A DNA stretch of 32,000 nt from Sinorhizobium meliloti (GCF_017876815.1 NZ_JAGIOS010000003.1:1170001-1202000); one strand, 5' to 3'. Counted from the first letter of the stretch, positions 6,912 through 15,166 are shown. Notes: generated by a model from the letters alone, not told the origin. Program-made: numbers and translations.

Positions 6912-7979
6912 ATGCTGAACCGCCGCCGATTTCTGACGAATGCTGCGACAGCAGCAATCGCGACTGCCTGGGTTTCAAGAGGCGGCACGCGAGCCCGTGC
7001 CGAGGAGGCCGGAAATGGTTCCCGCTGGCGTCGTTTCGAGATTATCACCAAAATCGACCTTCAGCCGGCTGAAGGCCCGGCGCAGCTCTGGCTGCCGGTA
7101 GTCCGGTCTGCCGGTGACTATCAGAAAGCGGACGCTCCGCGCTGGGTATCGAACAGCACCGACATCCGTATGGAGAAAGACCCCTCCTCCGGCGCCGACA
7201 TTCTGCGCGTCATGTGGCAAGACGAGCCACGGCGCGCCATCGAGGTTACTCAACACGTGGCCACGCGCGATCGCCGCGTGGCAAGCAAGATCGCCGCAAC
7301 GGAGGCGGAACTGCAGCATGAGTTGCGCGGCACTCCCAGCATGCCCGTAGACGGCATCGTCAAGACAACCGCCATGCGCATTGTCGAAGGCCGGGATCGA
7401 GCCGAAGATCGCGCTCGGGCGATCTACGATTGGGTGATCGACAATACGTTCCGCGATGCGAACATCGACGGCTGCGGCGTCGGCAACGCCAGGGACATGC
7501 TGGAAAGCGGCTATTTCGGCGGCAAGTGCGCAGACATATCAAGCTTGTTCGTGTCGCTCGCCCGAGCCGCCGGCCTGCCTGCCCGCGACGTCTTCGGCAT
7601 CCGAGTGGCCGATTCCGCCGATTTCAAGAGCCTCGGCCGTTCCGGCGACATCACCAAAGCGCAGCACTGTCGCGCCGAAGTCTATCTCGACGCTCATGGC
7701 TGGGTTCCGGTCGATCCGGCTGATGTCCGCAAGGTTGTGCTCGAAGAAAACCTGCCGCTCGATAATCCCGCCGTCCGCGCTTTCCGCGAAAAAGCTTACG
7801 GCAACTGGGAAATGAACTGGGTGGGCTACAACACGGCGCGAGATCTCGTTCTGCCCGGAGGAGAGCTGCGACAGGGGTTCCTGATGTATCCTGCAGCAGT
7901 TACCTCGCGCGGCGAGCTGGACTGCCTCAATCCGCAGACCTTCGCCTATTCGATCACCTCCAGGGAAATAGCAGCCTGA
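6912..7979 (+). CDS. Tat-exported transglutaminase-like (cysteine-protease fold) protein
   Basis: Twin-arginine leader MLNRRRFLTNAATAAIATAWV. Transglutaminase-core triad context: GGKCADISSLFVSLARAAGLPARDV (Cys), HCRAEVYLDAHGWVPVDPAD (His, Asp). Confidence 0.85.
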   Translation: MLNRRRFLTNAATAAIATAWVSRGGTRARAEEAGNGSRWRRFEIITKIDLQPAEGPAQLWLPVVRSAGDYQKADAPRWVSNSTDIRMEKDPSSGADILRVMWQDEPRRAIEVTQHVATRDRRVASKIAATEAELQHELRGTPSMPVDGIVKTTAMRIVEGRDRAEDRARAIYDWVIDNTFRDANIDGCGVGNARDMLESGYFGGKCADISSLFVSLARAAGLPARDVFGIRVADSADFKSLGRSGDITKAQHCRAEVYLDAHGWVPVDPADVRKVVLEENLPLDNPAVRAFREKAYGNWEMNWVGYNTARDLVLPGGELRQGFLMYPAAVTSRGELDCLNPQTFAYSITSREIAA

Positions 7980-8002
7980 GGGCCAGGCGACGTCCGAAAA
8001 CG

Positions 8003-8032
8003 AAGCCGCAGGAAGATCGATCACTGCGGCTT
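8003..8032. terminator. Hairpin between convergent genes (candidate terminator, mainly for the minus-strand gene)
   Basis: 9-bp inverted repeat AAGCCGCAG (8003..8011) / CTGCGGCTT (8024..8032) with a 12-nt loop. On the minus strand it is followed by CGUUUUCGG. It overlaps the stop codon of the 8021..8404 gene. Confidence 0.3.
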
Positions 8033-8404
8033 GATCTCCTCGATCGTTAGCCGCAATCCATCGGCGTTGAACAAATCCCCCTCCCTGATCAGGGAACGAT
8101 CCTCGTTGAGTTTGAAAACCAGCGAAGCGAGCCTCGACTTCGCCTCCCCGTCCTCCACTAGGCCTTCGCGGCCAGCCCGGTAGAAGACGGCGCCCGACCA
8201 GTCGACGCCGGCGCCGCGGAAAAGCCGCACCATGTCCGGCCAGCGCAATTCGTCCCCGACAACGTGAAGATAGGCTGAGCGCAGCAGATCGACACTGGTG
8301 TCGTTGATCCGGAGCAGCACGAACAGCATGGTGAACGAGCCGACGTCCCTGTAAATCGAGACCACCCAGTCGTCAAAATCGGTCCCATGCGTTTCGGCGG
8401 TCAC
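8021..8404 (-). CDS. Hypothetical 127-aa protein directly downstream of tRNA-Sec
   Basis: The listed ORF 8021..8503 runs into the tRNA. A GTG at 8404 is preceded by GGAGA with a 6-nt spacer, and I take that as the start. No family recognised. Confidence 0.5.
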   Translation of the reverse strand: MTAETHGTDFDDWVVSIYRDVGSFTMLFVLLRINDTSVDLLRSAYLHVVGDELRWPDMVRLFRGAGVDWSGAVFYRAGREGLVEDGEAKSRLASLVFKLNEDRSLIREGDLFNADGLRLTIEEIKPQ

Positions 8405-8418
8405 GAAGGGTCTCCTGA

Positions 8419-8514
8419 TGGCGGAAGAGAATGGGAGTCGAACCCACCCAAGACAGCCTCGCTGCCCCACCCGGATTTGAAGTCCGGACATGCCACCGGG
8501 CATGATTCTCTTCC
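8419..8514 (-). tRNA. selC: tRNA-Sec (anticodon UCA), 96 nt including CCA
   Basis: Minus-strand sequence GGAAGAGAATCATGCCCGGTGGCATGTCCGGACTTCAAATCCGGGTGGGGCAGCGAGGCTGTCTTGGGTGGGTTCGACTCCCATTCTCTTCCGCCA. It has an 8-bp acceptor stem (GGAAGAGA/TCTCTTCC) and a 6-bp D stem (CATGCC/GGCATG) with a 4-nt loop. The 6-bp anticodon stem carries the loop CTTCAAA. There is a long variable arm and a 5-bp T stem with loop TTCGACT, giving the bacterial 8/5 Sec architecture. Confidence 0.93.
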
Positions 8515-8582
8515 AGGCGTCGAATTTGTTGCCATTTCACCGGAGACAATCTTTGCAAACGCGAGCGATTGCTGCCGCTTTG

Positions 8583-8830
8583 CTACCCTTTGCCATCACT
8601 CCTGTCCACTACAGCACGACTGATCATGTCGTCAATCTGCGCTGCGGCATGGGCCTGTATCCCGGGCATCACATGCGAGTACAGGTCGAGCGTAATGCCG
8701 ATCTTCGAATGTGAAAGACGCTCACTCGCGATCTTTGGATGGACGCCGCCGGCCAGCAACTGCGTTGCATGGGTGTGGCGCAAGTCGTGGAAGCGCATCC
8801 GCGGGTGGGTCCACTGGGTCGCCACTCGAA
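8583..8830 (-). pseudogene. Tyrosine recombinase (phage-type integrase), C-terminal fragment only
   Basis: The tail of ORF 8583..9050 reads RFHDLRHTHATQLLAGGVHPKIASERLSHSKIGITLDLYSHV, which covers the HxLRH, LGH-like and catalytic Tyr region. Upstream residues of the ORF do not look integrase-like, so about three quarters of the gene is missing. Confidence 0.7.
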
Positions 8831-9179
8831 AGTGACAGCTCCAATCTTGTCTACGCTCGGCGGCTTGCCTAAGACCTTTGTCGTTGATGAGCTGGTCTAA
8901 GGTCCGGCAAGCACATGTCGGGCGTGTAATTGGAGCTGCAGCTGGTCGGCCCGCTGCAGCTCTGTTTGTTCCTACACACCCGCCGCGATGTCTCTCTGCA
9001 ATCTGAACTCTCGGCCACTCGCTTTGCGGGGCTGCCTCCGCATTTGTCACTCAACATCATCTGGCAACGGTAAGTCCGCCATCGCTCACCGCACAAAATA
9101 CCTCTTCCTATAAACAAAAGACGGAACCGGGCTCTGATCTGCGCGTTCGGAGCAAACATCATCGTGCGAGGAGGCGGAC

Positions 9180-9572
9180 ATGAAACCGGCGACAATATTG
9201 CTTGCCGATGATGAAGCGCTGCTCCTTTTGGATTACGAGGCTGCCCTTGCCGAGGCGGGGTTCGTCGTTGTGGCGGTAGCCAGCGGAGGGAAGGCGATAG
9301 AGGTTTTGAGGTCCGCAGACTCCGAAATAGCAGGGGTGGTAACCGATATTCGGTTTTTTGGACTTCCCGACGGTTGGAGCGTCGCACGTGTTGCCCGTGA
9401 GATTGATCCTGATATGCCGGTCGTCTACGTCACCGGACATGGCGCTCTCGAGTGGCCCTCAAGGGGTGTCGCGAACAGCATCTTGCTCGAAAAGCCCTTC
9501 GCTCTCGCACAACTGGTGACGGCCGTATCCCAGCTGCTCAACGCACCCCGTGCTCCTCAGTGTGGCGCCTGA
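9180..9572 (+). CDS. Stand-alone response-regulator receiver (CheY-like) domain protein
   Basis: 130 aa with strong GAGGAGG 5 nt upstream. Acidic pocket LLADDE, candidate phospho-acceptor in VVTDIRF, conserved T (VYVTGH) and K (LEKPF). No output domain and no cognate kinase in the window. Confidence 0.8.
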   Translation: MKPATILLADDEALLLLDYEAALAEAGFVVVAVASGGKAIEVLRSADSEIAGVVTDIRFFGLPDGWSVARVAREIDPDMPVVYVTGHGALEWPSRGVANSILLEKPFALAQLVTAVSQLLNAPRAPQCGA

Positions 9573-9641
9573 TCCGCAGCCCCGGAGCTAGCACAGATTA
9601 TTCCCAGTCAGTTCTGGCGCAAATGGACAATTCCTGGCTCT

Positions 9642-9854
9642 CTAGGCCGCCGCTCTGAGCATTTCGCGCAAGCTGTCCTTGTTCCTGACGCCCCTTTGAC
9701 AAAGCTCTATTAGCCTAGCTGCCAGAACGGTCGCCTCAGGGCAATCATAGGTCATTCTTCTGGCTTTGATCTCCTCGTCGAACAGGCTCTGCAGCAATTT
9801 GATATCGCTCGGAGTGAGAATCCTAGGATCGATTGCATGGAACTGAGAGGTCAT
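9642..9854 (-). CDS. Hypothetical 70-aa protein
   Basis: Internal ATG at 9854 of ORF 9642..10076, preceded by GGAGA about 8 nt upstream. The upstream part of the long ORF looks non-coding. Sequence MTSQFHAIDPRILTPSDIKLLQSLF... has weak resemblance to the 11104..11391 product. Confidence 0.45.
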   Translation of the reverse strand: MTSQFHAIDPRILTPSDIKLLQSLFDEEIKARRMTYDCPEATVLAARLIELCQRGVRNKDSLREMLRAAA

Positions 9855-10026
9855 TGGCCGATCTCCTCTCTGGGGGCGTAATTGCGGAAACTCCGCAGGG
9901 CGCCCCGGGTAAATTCGGCAGTGCAACGAGCATTGTAGACCGAAGAATGGCGATTGCGAGTCGCGAAAATTCACGGCACGGCTGATAAGCAGTGATCCGA
10001 TCAACATCTCGTGCGTTATTGGCTTC

Positions 10027-10950
10027 ATGGCCAAAGCACCTTCAAAGAAGCCATCCTCAGAGCCGTCTGATCCCATGCCGGCGCGTGTCTATCCCTGCCT
10101 TGCGACGCTCGTCGATAAGCCGCCGACCGGGCAGGACTGGGCCTACGAGGTGAAGTGGGCCGGCTACCGGCTGGCCGTGCACATCGAGCCCGGCTAGGTG
10201 AGAATTCTCACGCGCGGCGGCTACGACTGGACCGACAGGCTCCCGTCGATTGCTGACGACGCGCGACGGCTCGCCGTGCAGACGGCCATAATCGACGGAG
10301 AGGCTGTCGTGCTCGATGAAAAGCATGCTCCAGCGAGCCTTGGGCCGTCTGCCGTCTATCCTCGAAGCGGGCGCCATCGTCTGCTATGCCTTCGACCTGC
10401 TCTATCTCAACGACGCGACGTTCGCCGGCTGCCGCTGCGGGAGCGCCGGAGACTGCTGCAACCGATCATCGCCAGACAGGAAGCGGCGGTTCGGTGTTCT
10501 GAGGAAGGCGATGCGGGGGCGAAGATTTCCTCCGTGCCGCGTGCGCGCACGGCCTCGAAGGCATGATCGCCAAGCATGTCGAGAAGGCCCATCGTTCCGG
10601 CCGGGGCGAGTGGTGGCGAAAGATCGCCTGCAAAAGTCGAAATAGCTTTGTGGTGATCGGCTTCGAGCCGTCGACTGTGCAGGCCATCTCGGTCGGCTTG
10701 TGCTCGCCGCCGGAAGGGCGGAGCTCTGGTTTATGTCGGCGGCTGATTACCGGCTGGTCGAACCAACTGTCGCGCGAGCTGCGTAACCTGCTCGAAGGAA
10801 TGGTGACGAAAACGCCAGCGTTGGCCCTGAGGCGGATAGGCGCCGTCTTCGTGGAGCCGGTGCTCGTCGCAAAAGTCGAGTATCGGGCCTGGACCGATGA
10901 CGGAAATTGCAAGCATGCGTCCTTTAAGGGGAGAAGGCCGCGAGAGGATG
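10027..10950 (+). pseudogene. ATP-dependent DNA ligase (LigD/Lig-type adenylation + OB domains), disrupted
   Basis: Recognisable ligase segments are spread over three frames. They read MAKAPSKK...WAYEVKWAGYRLAVHIEPG, then an in-frame TAG at 10195..10197, then VRILTRGGYDWTDRLPSIADDARRLAVQTAIIDGEAVVLDE. These are followed by IVCYAFDLLYLN (+1 frame), LPLRERRRLLQPII (frame 0), and EDFLRAACAHGLEGMIAKHVEKAHRSGRGEWWRKI, FVVIGFEP and LVAKVEYRAWTDDGNCKHASFKG (+2 frame). The adenylation motif KxDG reads KWAG. Confidence 0.8.
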
Positions 10951-11103
10951 GCCCCCTCTTTTCGGGATGGGCTAGATCTTGTGACAACCTAGAGGGCGTT
11001 GCCAACCGTAAGCCGAAGGCGCAAGGTCCAACCTTCAGTAGAAATGTCACGGGCGCTGCTGCTTAAGGGCTAAAAGCCTTGGCCCCCTTTGAAGGAGCAC
11101 GCA

Positions 11104-11391
11104 ATGTCTTCCAACGTATCCATCATGTCACCTTCGGACCTGCAATTCATCAGGTCAGTTTTGGGCGAAGCCGGCTATAACGCCAAACTTCTCGTTGACG
11201 ATCCTCGATCTTTTGAAACGGCCGAATTGCTCGTAACTAAGTTGTTCCTGGCGGGTGAAGACTCCCGACCGGGCCTGGCGGCGAAGCTAGAGTGTCAGTT
11301 GGGCAAGGCTGGCAGGTACAGACGGCCTCCCGGGTCGTCGCTGGCGCGGTATGCAATCCAAGGTCTTCCAAGCGAGCTACAATTTTCATAA
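11104..11391 (+). CDS. Hypothetical 95-aa protein
   Basis: GAAGGAG lies 6 nt upstream of the ATG at 11104. Sequence MSSNVSIMSPSDLQFIRSVLGEAG... No family recognised. Confidence 0.45.
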   Translation: MSSNVSIMSPSDLQFIRSVLGEAGYNAKLLVDDPRSFETAELLVTKLFLAGEDSRPGLAAKLECQLGKAGRYRRPPGSSLARYAIQGLPSELQFS

Positions 11392-11562
11392 GCACGACGA
11401 TGCCCGGAACGATCGTAGCCCGGTTTGCAAGTTGTAGAACAGCCCAAGAATGCGCAACTCGCGGTTTCCAATTCACGAAGCGTTCCGCGCTTTATCGTGT
11501 CGTTGTTAGGACCGATTGGAAACCACATTTCGCTCCACCCCTTCGTAGAACCGCCGCACCGC

Positions 11563-11853
11563 TCATTCCTTTCCATCCAACTCAATCTTCAGCGTTCTGA
11601 TGATGTCGGCCGCGTCCAGCATGACGTCTCTGGTCTCCGCGGGAGATAGGTCACGGGCGCGTGACGAGGCCAACTGGAGATCAATCACAACGTCTCGGGC
11701 GCGGTGGCTGGCAGCAATGCTAGCCTGCCTGCGCATATCACGGATCGTGTCAACCGAACGATCCAGCAGCCGGCTGATCTCATAGGGCGTAAGTCTTTCG
11801 ACCTCGTTCGCGGCTCTGATCAGTTCGGCAATGAATGCGGTCGTGAGGCTCAT
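11563..11853 (-). CDS. Hypothetical 96-aa protein
   Basis: The ATG at 11853 (MSLTTAFIAELIRAANEVERL...) overlaps the TGA of the upstream ORF in an ATGA arrangement, suggesting translational coupling. The protein looks helical and charged. Confidence 0.45.
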   Translation of the reverse strand: MSLTTAFIAELIRAANEVERLTPYEISRLLDRSVDTIRDMRRQASIAASHRARDVVIDLQLASSRARDLSPAETRDVMLDAADIIRTLKIELDGKE

Positions 11854-12170
11854 GGTCTTCTGACGCCGGCCCCATGCGGAGCGTTTCGAGCGGCTGTTTT
11901 CTCCGCCATCTTCGCTCGGAATTTCTCTCCCAAGCGCGGTACAGCATCCACTCCGAGATTCATTACTCGGTCCAGGTCCTCCCGATACCAGAATTTCCGC
12001 GTGGCGCTTTCCAATACGCATGGCTCCGGATAGGCGGTTCCTACGGGCTCGAGGAAGTCCTCGACGTGCTTTTCGCTGACGCAGCCCGCCGCCATTTCTG
12101 CCGTCATCCGCGGCGGCCAACTACTCGGCGGTACAATGGCTGCGCGATGCTTTCTATTCGAGATAGCCAT
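11850..12170 (-). CDS. Hypothetical protein, possibly excisionase/AlpA-like DNA-binding protein
   Basis: MAISNRKHRAAIVPPSSWPPRMTAEMAAGCVSEKHVEDFLEPVGTAYPEPCVLESATRKFWYREDLDRVMN resembles the short HTH proteins (...R.W.REDLD...) found at the ends of integrative elements. The start is uncertain (ORF track 11850..12332) and the family assignment is from memory only. Confidence 0.35.
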   Translation of the reverse strand: MAISNRKHRAAIVPPSSWPPRMTAEMAAGCVSEKHVEDFLEPVGTAYPEPCVLESATRKFWYREDLDRVMNLGVDAVPRLGEKFRAKMAEKTAARNAPHGAGVRRP

Positions 12171-12374
12171 CAAAGCACCGGGGACTTCGGTCGATGGGCG
12201 CTTAAGTTGCGCATTGCCATATGCCCCGCCTTCCTTAGATTTCATCTGGGCGGCCGTGCCGGCCACGTGCGAGCTCGCCTTGATGAACCCTCGCTCCTTC
12301 CAATTTCTTCTGGCAGGGACGCAACCTCGCACATGCCTTTACGGATCAGACCTTCTAAGTATTGAAAGGGATGT

Positions 12375-14375
12375 TCAAGAGCCGGCGCGATAGAATTTGA
12401 AGTCCGGACGCCCCACCGGGGACGAGTCTCTTCCCTCATCTGCCTCAGGAACGTGCCCTTCGTAAAGATCGAGCCTGTGCGGGTTAACCCGGCGCACGTC
12501 GCCATGCCGGAGCGTCACTCCCTGACGATCGAAGAATTCCAGGATCTCGATCGCCACCTTTCTACCGTTGTTGACACGGTCGCGGAAGAGACCTGCGGAA
12601 AATTCACCCCGCTCGGCATTGGCCGCGACTTGCCTGATGATTGCGACCATTTCCGCTGTCGTCTGACGGGTGAAGAAATGGTCATGCCGAATCTGGTCGA
12701 CGCGGCCGAGCCGTGCACAAAGTTTGAGGATGCGGCGTATCTCTCGCTCGTCTACGCCCAGCGTTTCGGCGAAATCGCGGACTCGAGGCGGACGGAATCT
12801 CTCCTCGCCTTCCAGATGCGGAAGGATTCGTGCATAGAGCTCCTCCTCCTTCTCGCTCAACCGGACCTCGTGACCCGGCAATCGGACGAAGGCGCCTTCG
12901 AGCACCAGGCGCCCGCCCGTCTGTTCGGTCCTAAGCGCAACCAGAAAGGCCGGCGGAGGAAGTCGTGGCGTGACCTGCAGCCGAAGGCGCTCGCGACCGA
13001 TCCCCTGCAGATCGGGGTTCTCCACATGAAAGGCGCTCAATACGCGCTGGACCTCGTCGGAAAATGCGACTCGCTGGCGCTTCGACAGCGCATGGCGCAC
13101 CGCCAGGCCCTCGATGAGTTCGGCCGAGGCAAACATGAGCGCGTTCTGCAGTTCCGGCTCGGACAGGGCCCGGTCGCGTGCAAAGACGTCAAGATCGACA
13201 AGAAATGGCGGAACATCCAGCAATGCCGCAAGCGCTTCGCCAGCATGGGACAGAGATGCGGCTTTCAAGAAGCTCAGCCGCTGGGGAGAGCGCCGCTTGC
13301 GCAGGGGCGCCCGCAGATCCAGGAGCCGTCCTCCACCGATCGTGCGCCGGGCTGAAACGTCGCGCAGTATGAACCGGTCGCCGACAGCAGCCGCGATCGG
13401 ACGGTCGAGCACGAGTTGAACCCGCCGCCGCTCGCCCGGCAACAGCGGTCCCTCGAGCGGCACGATACGAACACCGGTCTCGGCGCTCGCGTGGTGAAAG
13501 CGGGCCGAAAACCATTCCCCGATCGGCTTCGTCTCACTTTCAAGCACAGAAAGATCCGCGTCGAGCCTGTCGCTCGGCGCGTGCAGATGGGGATCGACCA
13601 CCATGTCGCCTCGGGTGATTGCGTTCTTCGAGATCCCCTCGCCCGCAAGGTTGAGTGCACAGCGTTGCCCGGCAAAGCCGCGCTCGGCCCTCTGGTTCTG
13701 AGCATGTATGGAACGTACGCGCGCAGCGCGACCCGCTGGCGAGACCGTCACCTGGTCGCCCACGCCGACGGACCCTGAAAGCACGGTTCCAGTGACCACG
13801 GTTCCGGCGCCCGAGAGCGTGAAGCTTCGATCGACGGCGAGCCGGAAACGGCCACCGGCAGTCGATGCCACGGTCGCACGCTCGGCAGCCGCCAGGCGTG
13901 CCTTCAACAATTCAATCCCCTGCCCCGCCGCCGCAGAGACGGGAAGTATCTCCGCATCGCGGAGGCTCGTCGACGAAAGCACCGCTCCTATTTCATCCGT
14001 CAGGCTCTCGAGGCGGTCAGGATCGGCAAGGTCTGCTTTTGTGATCGCGACCAGTCCGCGGCTGACGCCGAGCAGATCGAGGATCGCGAGATGTTCGAGC
14101 GTCTGGGGTTTGATGCCATCGTCTGCCGCAACGACCAGCATGGCATAGTCGATGCCGCCCGCGCCGGCGAGCATGGTATGAATGAAGCGCTCGTGACCGG
14201 GGACGTCGACAAATCCGGTAACTGCGTCCTTTGCAAACCGGGCATAGGCAAAGCCGAGATCGATGGTGATGCCGCGCGCCTTTTCTTCCTTGAGGCGATC
14301 GGTGTCGACACCGGTCAGTGCCTTGACGAGCGTCGTCTTGCCATGATCGATATGCCCGGCCGTGCCGACGATCAT
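12375..14375 (-). CDS. selB: Selenocysteine-specific translation elongation factor
   Basis: GTPase motifs [17 protein letters not shown] and TKADL, EF-Tu-like domains II/III, and a long C-terminal winged-helix extension (666 aa). The last ~20 codons are read from the tRNA-Sec relic and island junction. Confidence 0.92.
12395..12434 (-). repeat. Relic 5' half of a second tRNA-Sec (att-like partial copy)
   Basis: The minus strand GGAAGAGACTCGTCCCCGGTGGGGCGTCCGGACTTCAAAT aligns without gaps to nt 1-40 of the intact selC (34/40 identical). Identity ends immediately after the anticodon loop. The following sequence (TCTATCGC) cannot form the 3' anticodon stem. Confidence 0.8.
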
Positions 14376-15166
14376 GGCGCCCGCCTTGAAAGCGGCTCTT
14401 GCGCCCGACGTTCCGCTTCCTGGATCTCCGCCGGCGAAAGGCTGTCACGAACCGGTCCCATGAAGGGCTTTGCCAGGGTGCTGCCGCCTTCCGTCGCCCG
14501 GATCAGCCAGACCAAGGCAGTCACACCATTGCGTATCGTGCCCGCCCCCATATGGCAGGCCGCTCCCAGCATGGCCTGGGCGTCTGCGTCGCCCCTCTCT
14601 GCAGCCTTCAGCCACCAGTAGACGGCCTTTTGCGCATCGCGTTCGACACCGAGTGCGTTGTGGTGGAGCATGCCGAGCCGCGTCATCGAGGACGCGATGC
14701 CGGCCTCGGCGGCACATTCCGCCCAGCGTCGCGCCTCGAGCGGGTCGGCCGTCATGATCTCGCCTTCCAGCAGCAGCCAGCTCAACATGTCCTGGGCCGG
14801 CGCGTCGCCCTTTTCAGCGGCGCGTCGATAATATTCGGCTGCGATGCCGTAGTCGGCATCGGTGCCGGCGAGCCCTTGCATGTGCAGGGCGGCATAGTTG
14901 CGTTGCCCGACGGGATCCCCGGCTTCGGCCGCCAGGCGCAGCCATTTGCACGCCAGTTCTCGATTCTCCGGCACCCCGAGCCCTTCTGCGAAGCAGGCGC
15001 CGATATTGTTCTGCGCCCGCGCGACGCCGGCACGCGCCAGAGGCTCCCAGATGCGCAGCGCCGACCCGTAGTCGCCGGCTTGGGCGCGTGCCAGGGCCTC
15101 GGCCATCGGATCGGCCACAGGCGCCGTCTGGGGCTTATTGCCTCGAAGGCGTTCAAGCCACCGCAT
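14372..15166 (-). CDS. Sel1-like repeat (SLR/TPR-like) protein, cytoplasmic, embedded between selA and selB
   Basis: About six SLR units ([47 protein letters not shown]..., [24 protein letters not shown]..., [24 protein letters not shown]..., [25 protein letters not shown]...). No signal peptide. The ATG at 15166 overlaps the selA 3' end by 14 nt, and its stop overlaps the selB ATG (ATGA at 14372..14375). The longer track ORF (to 15325) would overlap selA extensively. Confidence 0.8.

Follow-up and report, generated by a model that had tools for sequence, protein, structure and literature searches.

A probable scar of a prophage-like integrative element in the split tRNA-Sec locus of a Sinorhizobium meliloti megaplasmid

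How did a stretch of Sinorhizobium meliloti DNA come to hold one complete gene for the selenocysteine tRNA (tRNA-Sec, selC) and, 3.9 kb away within the selB open reading frame (ORF), the 5' half of another? The DNA in question is a sequence of 32,000 nucleotides (GCF_017876815.1 NZ_JAGIOS010000003.1:1170001-1202000), the whole of which is called here the window. In Alphaproteobacteria, selC was described as nested in the selB ORF, whose stop codon overlaps the start of the next ORF, and the 5'-half remnant in S. meliloti selB was ascribed to a transposon (Mukai 2021, PMC8124441), in a text with 0 occurrences of the words 'integrase' or 'phage'. The present analysis leads to a different answer, namely that a prophage-like integrative element was inserted into selC by a tyrosine integrase and that the 3.9-kb segment is what remains of it after decay. 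The probability of this explanation was estimated at about 0.9.

The split locus and its uninterrupted relatives

Positions 8000-14400 of the window are pSymA-type megaplasmid DNA, 100% identical to that of S. meliloti SM11. Only one tRNA was called by ARAGORN in the whole window, namely the complete tRNA-Sec (8514..8419, minus strand), which scored 79.7 bits against Rfam RF01852 (gathering score 47). A search of both strands for selC matches with up to 10 mismatches revealed a sole other copy, the 40-nt relic of the 5' half on the same strand (12434..12395), which was not called as a tRNA. The relic is identical to tRNA-Sec positions 1-40 at 34/40 nucleotides and forms with selC the top direct repeat of the region (repeat D1, 85%, spacing 3920); the likeness breaks off exactly past ...CTTCAAAT. 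The mismatches are at positions 9, 12, 14, 23, 24 and 25, five of the six being within the 6-bp D stem, where pairing is kept: A12-T25 becomes G-C, T13-A24 becomes T-G and G14-C23 becomes C-G. The Rfam alignment contains no broken D-stem pair in either copy. The relic by itself scored only 23.1 bits (E 0.29), which is under the Rfam threshold, and it is therefore not a tRNA gene.

An earlier reading of this DNA, made by a model from the sequence alone (the sequence-only reading), had described the split pair, the six differences that spare the D-stem pairing and the abrupt end of the likeness at the anticodon loop, and it was borne out on these points. It had also placed the relic after selB; the two are indeed adjacent, but the annotated selB ORF takes in the whole relic, and its stop codon comes 20 nt later. 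In the window, selB holds just the 5' half of selC, with selC and ORF2 lying 3.9 kb away, so that the genes are not nested here.

Nesting itself was found in about 36 alphaproteobacterial loci (among L058-L131 of the compared set), in which selB has no stop codon before selC and reads through the whole tRNA-Sec gene. This read-through always occurs in one phase (nine linker lengths, all congruent to 1 mod 3), and all three frames of tRNA-Sec are open in these loci. In the uninterrupted relatives the selB stop codon overlaps the GTG start of ORF2 (GTGA), and the same nested-selC tail was seen in many SelB clusters.

If the 3.9-kb segment was inserted, relatives should exist with selB followed by an intact selC having a relic-like 5' half, as had been predicted from the sequence. 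An intact selC was found straight after selB in S. mexicanum, S. terangae, R. sullae and Rhizobium sp. T1473, as well as in many genomes from a SelB-based scan. The D arm of the empty-site selC is CGTCCCC..GGGGCG, i.e., of the relic type, and it was found in many other Rhizobiaceae. The most informative locus is that of Ensifer sp. USDA 6670, where SelB is 94% identical and both flanks are orthologous to the window. Its selC agrees with the relic at 39/40 positions in the 5' half and is equal to the window selC in the 3' half and the downstream flank. The relic thus matches the resident type of dozens of related genomes, which supports the earlier view that it belongs to a separate selC lineage and not to a recent duplication.

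The selC site was split in 49/49 Sinorhizobium plasmid records, and an uninterrupted junction was matched only by Ensifer canadensis. The insertion must therefore be an old one that has reached fixation in the species. Among 80 species-representative selB loci, no further relic-bearing site was found. Two pSymA lineages of S. meliloti can be distinguished: the relic differs from selC by 6 mismatches in the window and by 7 in Rm2011 (L002, ~8096-8135), the SelB tails are unlike (that of Rm2011 contains ..GRGSSPVERPDFK..) and the selB genes are only ~95.7% identical. This divergence of relic and selB indicates that integration predates a deep within-species split.

The integrase family and the attachment sites

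An integrase fragment just upstream of selC had been reported by the sequence-only reading, and this fragment, which matches PF00589 (positions 125-168, 33.5 bits, cut-off 27.1), does end 68 nt upstream of the tRNA gene. It retains HDLRH and the tyrosine of LYSHV from the R..HxxR..Y signature of tyrosine recombinases, and about 310 N-terminal residues are gone, which makes it a pseudogene. The fragment is 81-85% identical in amino acid (aa) sequence to the C-termini of intact selC-linked integrases of 385-389 aa. These were found with a composite of a frameshifted E. adhaerens integrase as the query, which revealed a large family of 384-389-aa integrases in Hyphomicrobiales, the intact ones carrying PF14659 and PF00589. 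From the end of the closest integrases (L009-L012 and L014), the distance to a complete tRNA-Sec downstream on the same strand is about 68 bp in each case, and these integrases lie at the margin of prophage-like DNA that contains genes for terminase, SSB and a tail-fibre peptidase. Intact relatives of the element with int beside tRNA-Sec, another prediction from the sequence, do therefore exist.

Both states of the attachment (att) site were found within Neorhizobium petrolearium. The strain DSM 26482 (L058) has an uninterrupted selB-selC junction, i.e., attB, and a second strain (L167, L009; assembly GCA_020687725.1) carries an 18,386-bp element at selC. The relic at attL of this lysogen agrees with the native 5' half in 40/40 positions, and the sequence after it, TCTAGCGCCGGC, has its homologue in the TCTATCGCGCCGGC following the S. 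meliloti relic. At attR, int is followed by selC with a CATGCC D arm, while the 3' half and the flank are the same as in the empty-site strain. The selC beside the intact integrase is identical to the S. meliloti selC, and the selC genes of the lysogen and the empty-site strain differ at the same six positions as the window selC and the relic. The attB, attL and attR set therefore brackets the crossover to tRNA positions 26-40 (GTCCGGACTTCAAAT), which take in the 5' strand of the anticodon stem and the loop. The repeat boundaries in the window put the crossover in the same block, in agreement with the anticodon stem-loop crossover suggested earlier. The attP of the N. petrolearium element would have the order int, 5' half, TCTAGCGCC.

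The 18.4-kb element may be a satellite or a defective prophage and not a full phage, because it showed neither a terminase nor a capsid gene. It also encodes a XerC-like tyrosine recombinase of 320 aa with PF02899 and PF00589 (L167, 14453-15415).

When the features used by the Islander method were considered, the S. meliloti segment was found to be bounded by the relic and selC, both on the minus strand, with the 5' fragment upstream of the tDNA and the integrase remnant inside. An empty site composed of the left part of attL and the right part of attR is available for both species (L059, which is the USDA 6670 locus, for S. meliloti, and L058 versus L167/L009 for N. petrolearium).

Across the compared loci, the CATGCC..GGCATG D arm belonged to 8/11 selC copies with an adjacent int (6 independent loci) and to 0/80 of those without int. 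The element-specific D arm travels with int, and the present selC is therefore a chimera of an element 5' half and a resident 3' half. This agrees with the sequence-only reading, also with respect to the reversed layout, in which the element carries tRNA positions 1-40 together with the upstream region.

Integrases of the same family, at 60-68% identity, are located upstream of the 5' end of tRNA-Ser(UGA) (L018-L055, IMG/VR). In the viral contigs L048 and L052 (~11170-11500), a tRNA-Ser 5' half comes after int and ends with ...CTTGAAAT, at the anticodon loop, where TCGC and phage DNA take over; this is a free attP. An attP with the 5' part of a tRNA gene was thus seen directly for tRNA-Ser and deduced from attB, attL and attR for tRNA-Sec. 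The presence of one family beside both genes suggests that its integrases switched target between tRNA-Sec and tRNA-Ser(UGA). Both tRNAs have a long variable arm, and their anticodon loops are one base apart (CTTGAAA vs. CTTCAAA). Two more viral contigs (L140 and L141) start with a tRNA-Sec 5' half ending ...CTTCAAAT and followed by TC, i.e., with the same boundary; the remaining 27/29 matches of the 15-mer relic pattern in viral contigs were rejected as chance. No close relative of the integrase was found in the sequenced-phage collection, where the best matches were Bacillus phage integrases with about 35% identity, and in the plasmid collection the integrase type was restricted to S. meliloti and a single E. 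adhaerens plasmid.

GGTAGCA repeats surround the att core on both arms in the L048 attP and in the N. petrolearium element, often as GGTAGCAAANNGGTAGCA, and are candidate arm-type integrase sites judging from their placement. One GGTAGCA motif overlaps the integrase stop codon; in the P arm of the window it is the one copy left (8587..8581). An alignment of the int-selC spacers of S. meliloti, Rm2011, CFT758, NFR07, N. petrolearium, L010 and L012 also revealed a conserved block GAAATGGCAAYRAAWTC directly upstream of the tRNA, which could possibly be an element-supplied promoter or a protein-binding site. The features of the window locus are listed in Table 1.

Table 1. Features of the split selC locus, with coordinates counted from the first nucleotide of the window.
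Feature	Position	Strand	Basis
selB; the ORF end is now in element-derived DNA and does not pass through a whole nested selC	12375..14375	-	ORF list, PGAP annotation; C-terminus compared with relatives
attL: displaced resident tRNA-Sec 5' half, positions 1-40, inside the selB ORF, no functional tRNA	12395..12434	-	34/40 to selC; 39/40 to Ensifer sp. USDA 6670; Rfam 23.1 bits
Identity block GTCCGGACTTCAAAT in attL, tRNA positions 26-40	12395..12409	-	Resident-type bases up to position 25; likeness ends past position 40
P' arm remnant TCTATCGCGCCGGC	12381..12394	-	Homologous to TCTAGCGCCGGC, found past the relic in the N. petrolearium lysogen
Island interior, decayed or replaced cargo	8805..12380		Pfam, local BLAST, repeat search
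Tyrosine integrase pseudogene, last ~73 codons and stop	8583..8804	-	PF00589, 33.5 bits; translation; 81-85% aa identity to intact C-termini
P arm, int stop to selC	8515..8582	-	Alignment of int-selC spacers
Section of selC from the element, positions 1-25 (acceptor 5' strand, entire D arm; CATGCC..GGCATG type)	8490..8514	-	Identical to the selC next to int of the N. petrolearium element
Identity block GTCCGGACTTCAAAT in attR, crossover zone	8475..8489	-	selC is of the element type through position 25
Resident part of selC (3' anticodon stem, variable arm, T arm, acceptor 3' strand, CCA)	8419..8474	-	Identical to the empty-site selC 3' half of Ensifer sp. USDA 6670 and N. petrolearium DSM 26482
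ORF2, 127 aa, downstream of selC	8021..8404	-	Annotation; flank comparison; Mukai 2021 (PMC8124441)

Proposed course of events and competing explanations

The following course of events can be proposed. Originally, selC would have lain nested in selB, at the 3' end of its reading frame. The element would have carried an attP directly downstream of int, composed of a mimic of tRNA-Sec positions 1-40 and upstream sequence of its own. A tyrosine integrase of the heterobivalent type would have inserted the element into selC by site-specific recombination, with strand exchange at some point of the 15-nt block GTCCGGACTTCAAAT common to both partners (anticodon stem 5' strand and loop). The resident 5' half would have been left at the selB end as attL, i.e., the relic, and the element 5' half would have been joined to the resident 3' half as attR, i.e., the present chimeric selC, which may be expressed from an element-supplied promoter. 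In the decay that followed, the integrase would have been cut down to the final ~73 codons and the interior and arm repeats would have been degraded or replaced. The element, no longer able to excise, would have become fixed in S. meliloti.

How the interior reached its present state allows for more than one scenario. It contains a receiver-domain gene (9180..9572, plus strand), ATP-dependent DNA ligase fragments within 10057..11066 (plus strand), one of them at 10563..11066, with a LigD-like C-terminal domain (PF04679), and otherwise small ORFs. The ligase fragments, which are labelled 'ATP-dependent carboligase' or 'DNA ligase' depending on the strain, probably represent a pseudogene. No recognisable phage genes were found by a Pfam search of the ORFs of the interior. 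A local BLAST search of the interior showed homology solely to the Rm2011 copy among the compared loci. An Rfam match to Betaproteobacteria-1 (11194..11317, E 0.98) was set aside as chance. The window and the N. petrolearium element have only two edges in common, namely 14 nt of the P' arm and about 290 nt of int and the P arm, and the interior must therefore have decayed or been replaced. It is possible, although we would not call it probable, that the locus is a composite scar, i.e., that integration did occur but a second element or plasmid recombination later replaced the original prophage content. The lack of homology between the interior and the N. petrolearium element or other prophages of the family is consistent with this, as are the DNA ligase fragments and the receiver-domain gene, which are atypical for phages of the family, and the island length, which is 3.9 kb in the SM11-type and about 4.4 kb in the Rm2011-type. 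However, the cargo of such elements is highly variable, and the missing homology is therefore weak evidence. Since both att junctions are intact, such a replacement would refine integration by the integrase without contradicting it.

The published explanation, also found in the pSymA genome literature cited by Mukai 2021, is that a transposon or insertion sequence was inserted between selAB and selCD and cut selC by accident. This now appears very improbable. No transposase domain was found among the island ORFs using Pfam, and no terminal inverted repeats were found at the island ends 8515 and 12394 in the repeat search. The flanking repeat is a 40-nt imperfect copy with bounds at tRNA landmarks, not a short exact target-site duplication, and a transposon would be unable to rebuild a complete selC with a different, co-varying D arm. 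Finally, a tyrosine integrase remnant adjoins selC in the same way as in the intact elements. Hardly credible, too, is a local partial duplication of selC with one copy diverging in place and unrelated DNA filling the gap: the 40-nt direct repeat at 85% identity would fit it, but the relic has the sequence usual for the resident selC in dozens of related genomes, it is the functional copy that diverges, with a sequence identical to the selC next to intact integrases of other genera, and the empty site with the attL/attR triplet shows a gain of DNA by recombination.

Several points weigh against insertion by the integrase, which nevertheless remains the preferred explanation. The 3.5-kb interior has neither a phage signature nor homology to the intact element, and secondary events must therefore be assumed. 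The int-adjacent selC genes of Rhizobium CC-CFT758 and E. adhaerens W2-A are without the CATGCC D arm, and no relic accompanies them. A free attP was found for the tRNA-Ser cousins only, that of tRNA-Sec being deduced. A scan upstream of the chimeric selC revealed no sigma-70 consensus promoter. Sequence comparison places the cleavage positions no more closely than within tRNA positions 26-40.

Known systems, significance and related loci

The locus and the relic are the same as those treated in Mukai 2021 (PMC8124441), and the nested relatives described there were reproduced here. That account is without an integrase, att sites, a chimeric selC or D-arm covariation, whereas S. meliloti and Rhizobium sp. 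NFR07 are interpreted here as integrase scars. The sequence-only reading had considered the geometry to be undescribed, and this does not hold, since the remnant was published (PMC8124441) and att sites in the 5' part of tRNA genes are known (10.1101/410191, PMC8371274). In the HTVC019P-type pelagiphages of SAR11, attP comes right after int and overlaps a host tRNA gene in its 5' part; upon integration the host tRNA is completed by the partial 5' end from the phage and gains phage-derived base changes (10.1101/410191). The likeness concerns the att geometry, with a tRNA 5' part at an int-proximal attP; the pelagiphages differ in their hosts, are podoviruses and target tRNA Cys, Leu and Arg, with no nested protein gene being hit. 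For the pTN3-like archaeal integrases, attB is the 5' half of a tRNA gene, which was called unique among archaea (PMC8371274). The 5'-half attB is in common with the present system, but these are archaeal plasmids and viruses with a different integrase lineage.

Usual tRNA-targeting elements carry the 3' portion of the tRNA and the host promoter is kept, 'with very few exceptions' (PMC8371274), whereas the 5' portion and the upstream region are replaced here. The Islander filter admits a 5' fragment upstream of the tDNA (PMC4383910). As far as Williams 2002 is reported in PMC4383910 and PMC8371274, the anticodon-loop sublocation class has its crossover in the 7-nt anticodon loop with symmetric stem flanks. 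The present locus is similar to this class in the restoration of the tRNA gene and in the marking of the element ends by a displaced fragment and a regenerated gene, and its crossover, bracketed to the anticodon stem 5' strand and the loop, may fall in the same zone. A literature search found no account joining selC, prophage, Sinorhizobium and integrase.

In enterobacteria, selC is likewise the target of tyrosine-integrase elements (LEE, SHI-2 and similar islands, with P4-type integrases), which adjoin the gene on its 3' side and duplicate that end of it. There, selC is not known to be nested in selB.

What is new here is the integrase mechanism for the S. meliloti locus, the chimeric tRNA-Sec and the Hyphomicrobiales integrase family with 5'-side targeting; the mechanism is not of a new kind. 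The cause published for the half tRNA-Sec in S. meliloti selB is thereby corrected from a transposon to an integrase, and the same applies to NFR07. A widespread family of prophage integrases in Hyphomicrobiales uses an uncommon 5'-side geometry on tRNA-Sec and tRNA-Ser(UGA), and N. petrolearium, with both att partners in one species, offers a ready experimental system. The only tRNA-Sec of S. meliloti would be a phage/host chimera with element-derived upstream DNA, which bears on the SelB/tRNA-Sec stoichiometry and on formate dehydrogenase expression in this species.

A further idea, which we regard as rather unlikely, is that integration rewires the homeostasis of the selenocysteine machinery, i.e., that it is a lysogenic conversion of the Sec system that became fixed in S. 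meliloti. If this were true, selC would have been freed from the selB frame, where tRNA processing and full-length SelB synthesis were proposed to be mutually exclusive. The selB-ORF2 stop/start overlap would have been broken, tRNA-Sec would have come under phage-supplied transcription signals, and a phage-specific D arm would have been installed. The D arm of bacterial tRNA-Sec is contacted by SelA.

Other loci of the compared set show related arrangements. Rhizobium/Aliirhizobium CC-CFT758 (L003 = L069, ~7186-7450) and Rhizobium sp. NFR07 (L166, 12600-12873) have the same ~0.8-kb scar with a C-terminal integrase remnant upstream of selC. The NFR07 scar contains the element-type CATGCC D arm, a decayed relic in selB and GGTAGCAA repeats, while the D arm of CC-CFT758 is resident-like (TGTCCCC..GGGGCG) and a relic is absent; another element variant or gene conversion could account for this. 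In the E. adhaerens W2-A plasmid p1 (L006, 1854-7928), a ~6-kb island is located between selB and selC, with a frameshifted same-family integrase about 250 aa long directly upstream of selC and no relic at the selB end; its selC has a third D-arm type, CGTCTCC..GGGACG.

A read-through of selC by selB was also considered for Betaproteobacteria and was dropped, as in-frame translation revealed that the Thiobacillus-type selB has its own stop codon. Displacement of selC downstream of selB, by 0.17, 2.0 and 5.7 kb, was observed in L057, L060 (Tianweitania) and L090 (Aquamicrobium aerolatum), respectively. In these three loci selB has its own stop codon, and neither a relic nor a family integrase upstream of selC is present; they may represent other routes to the loss of the nested arrangement.

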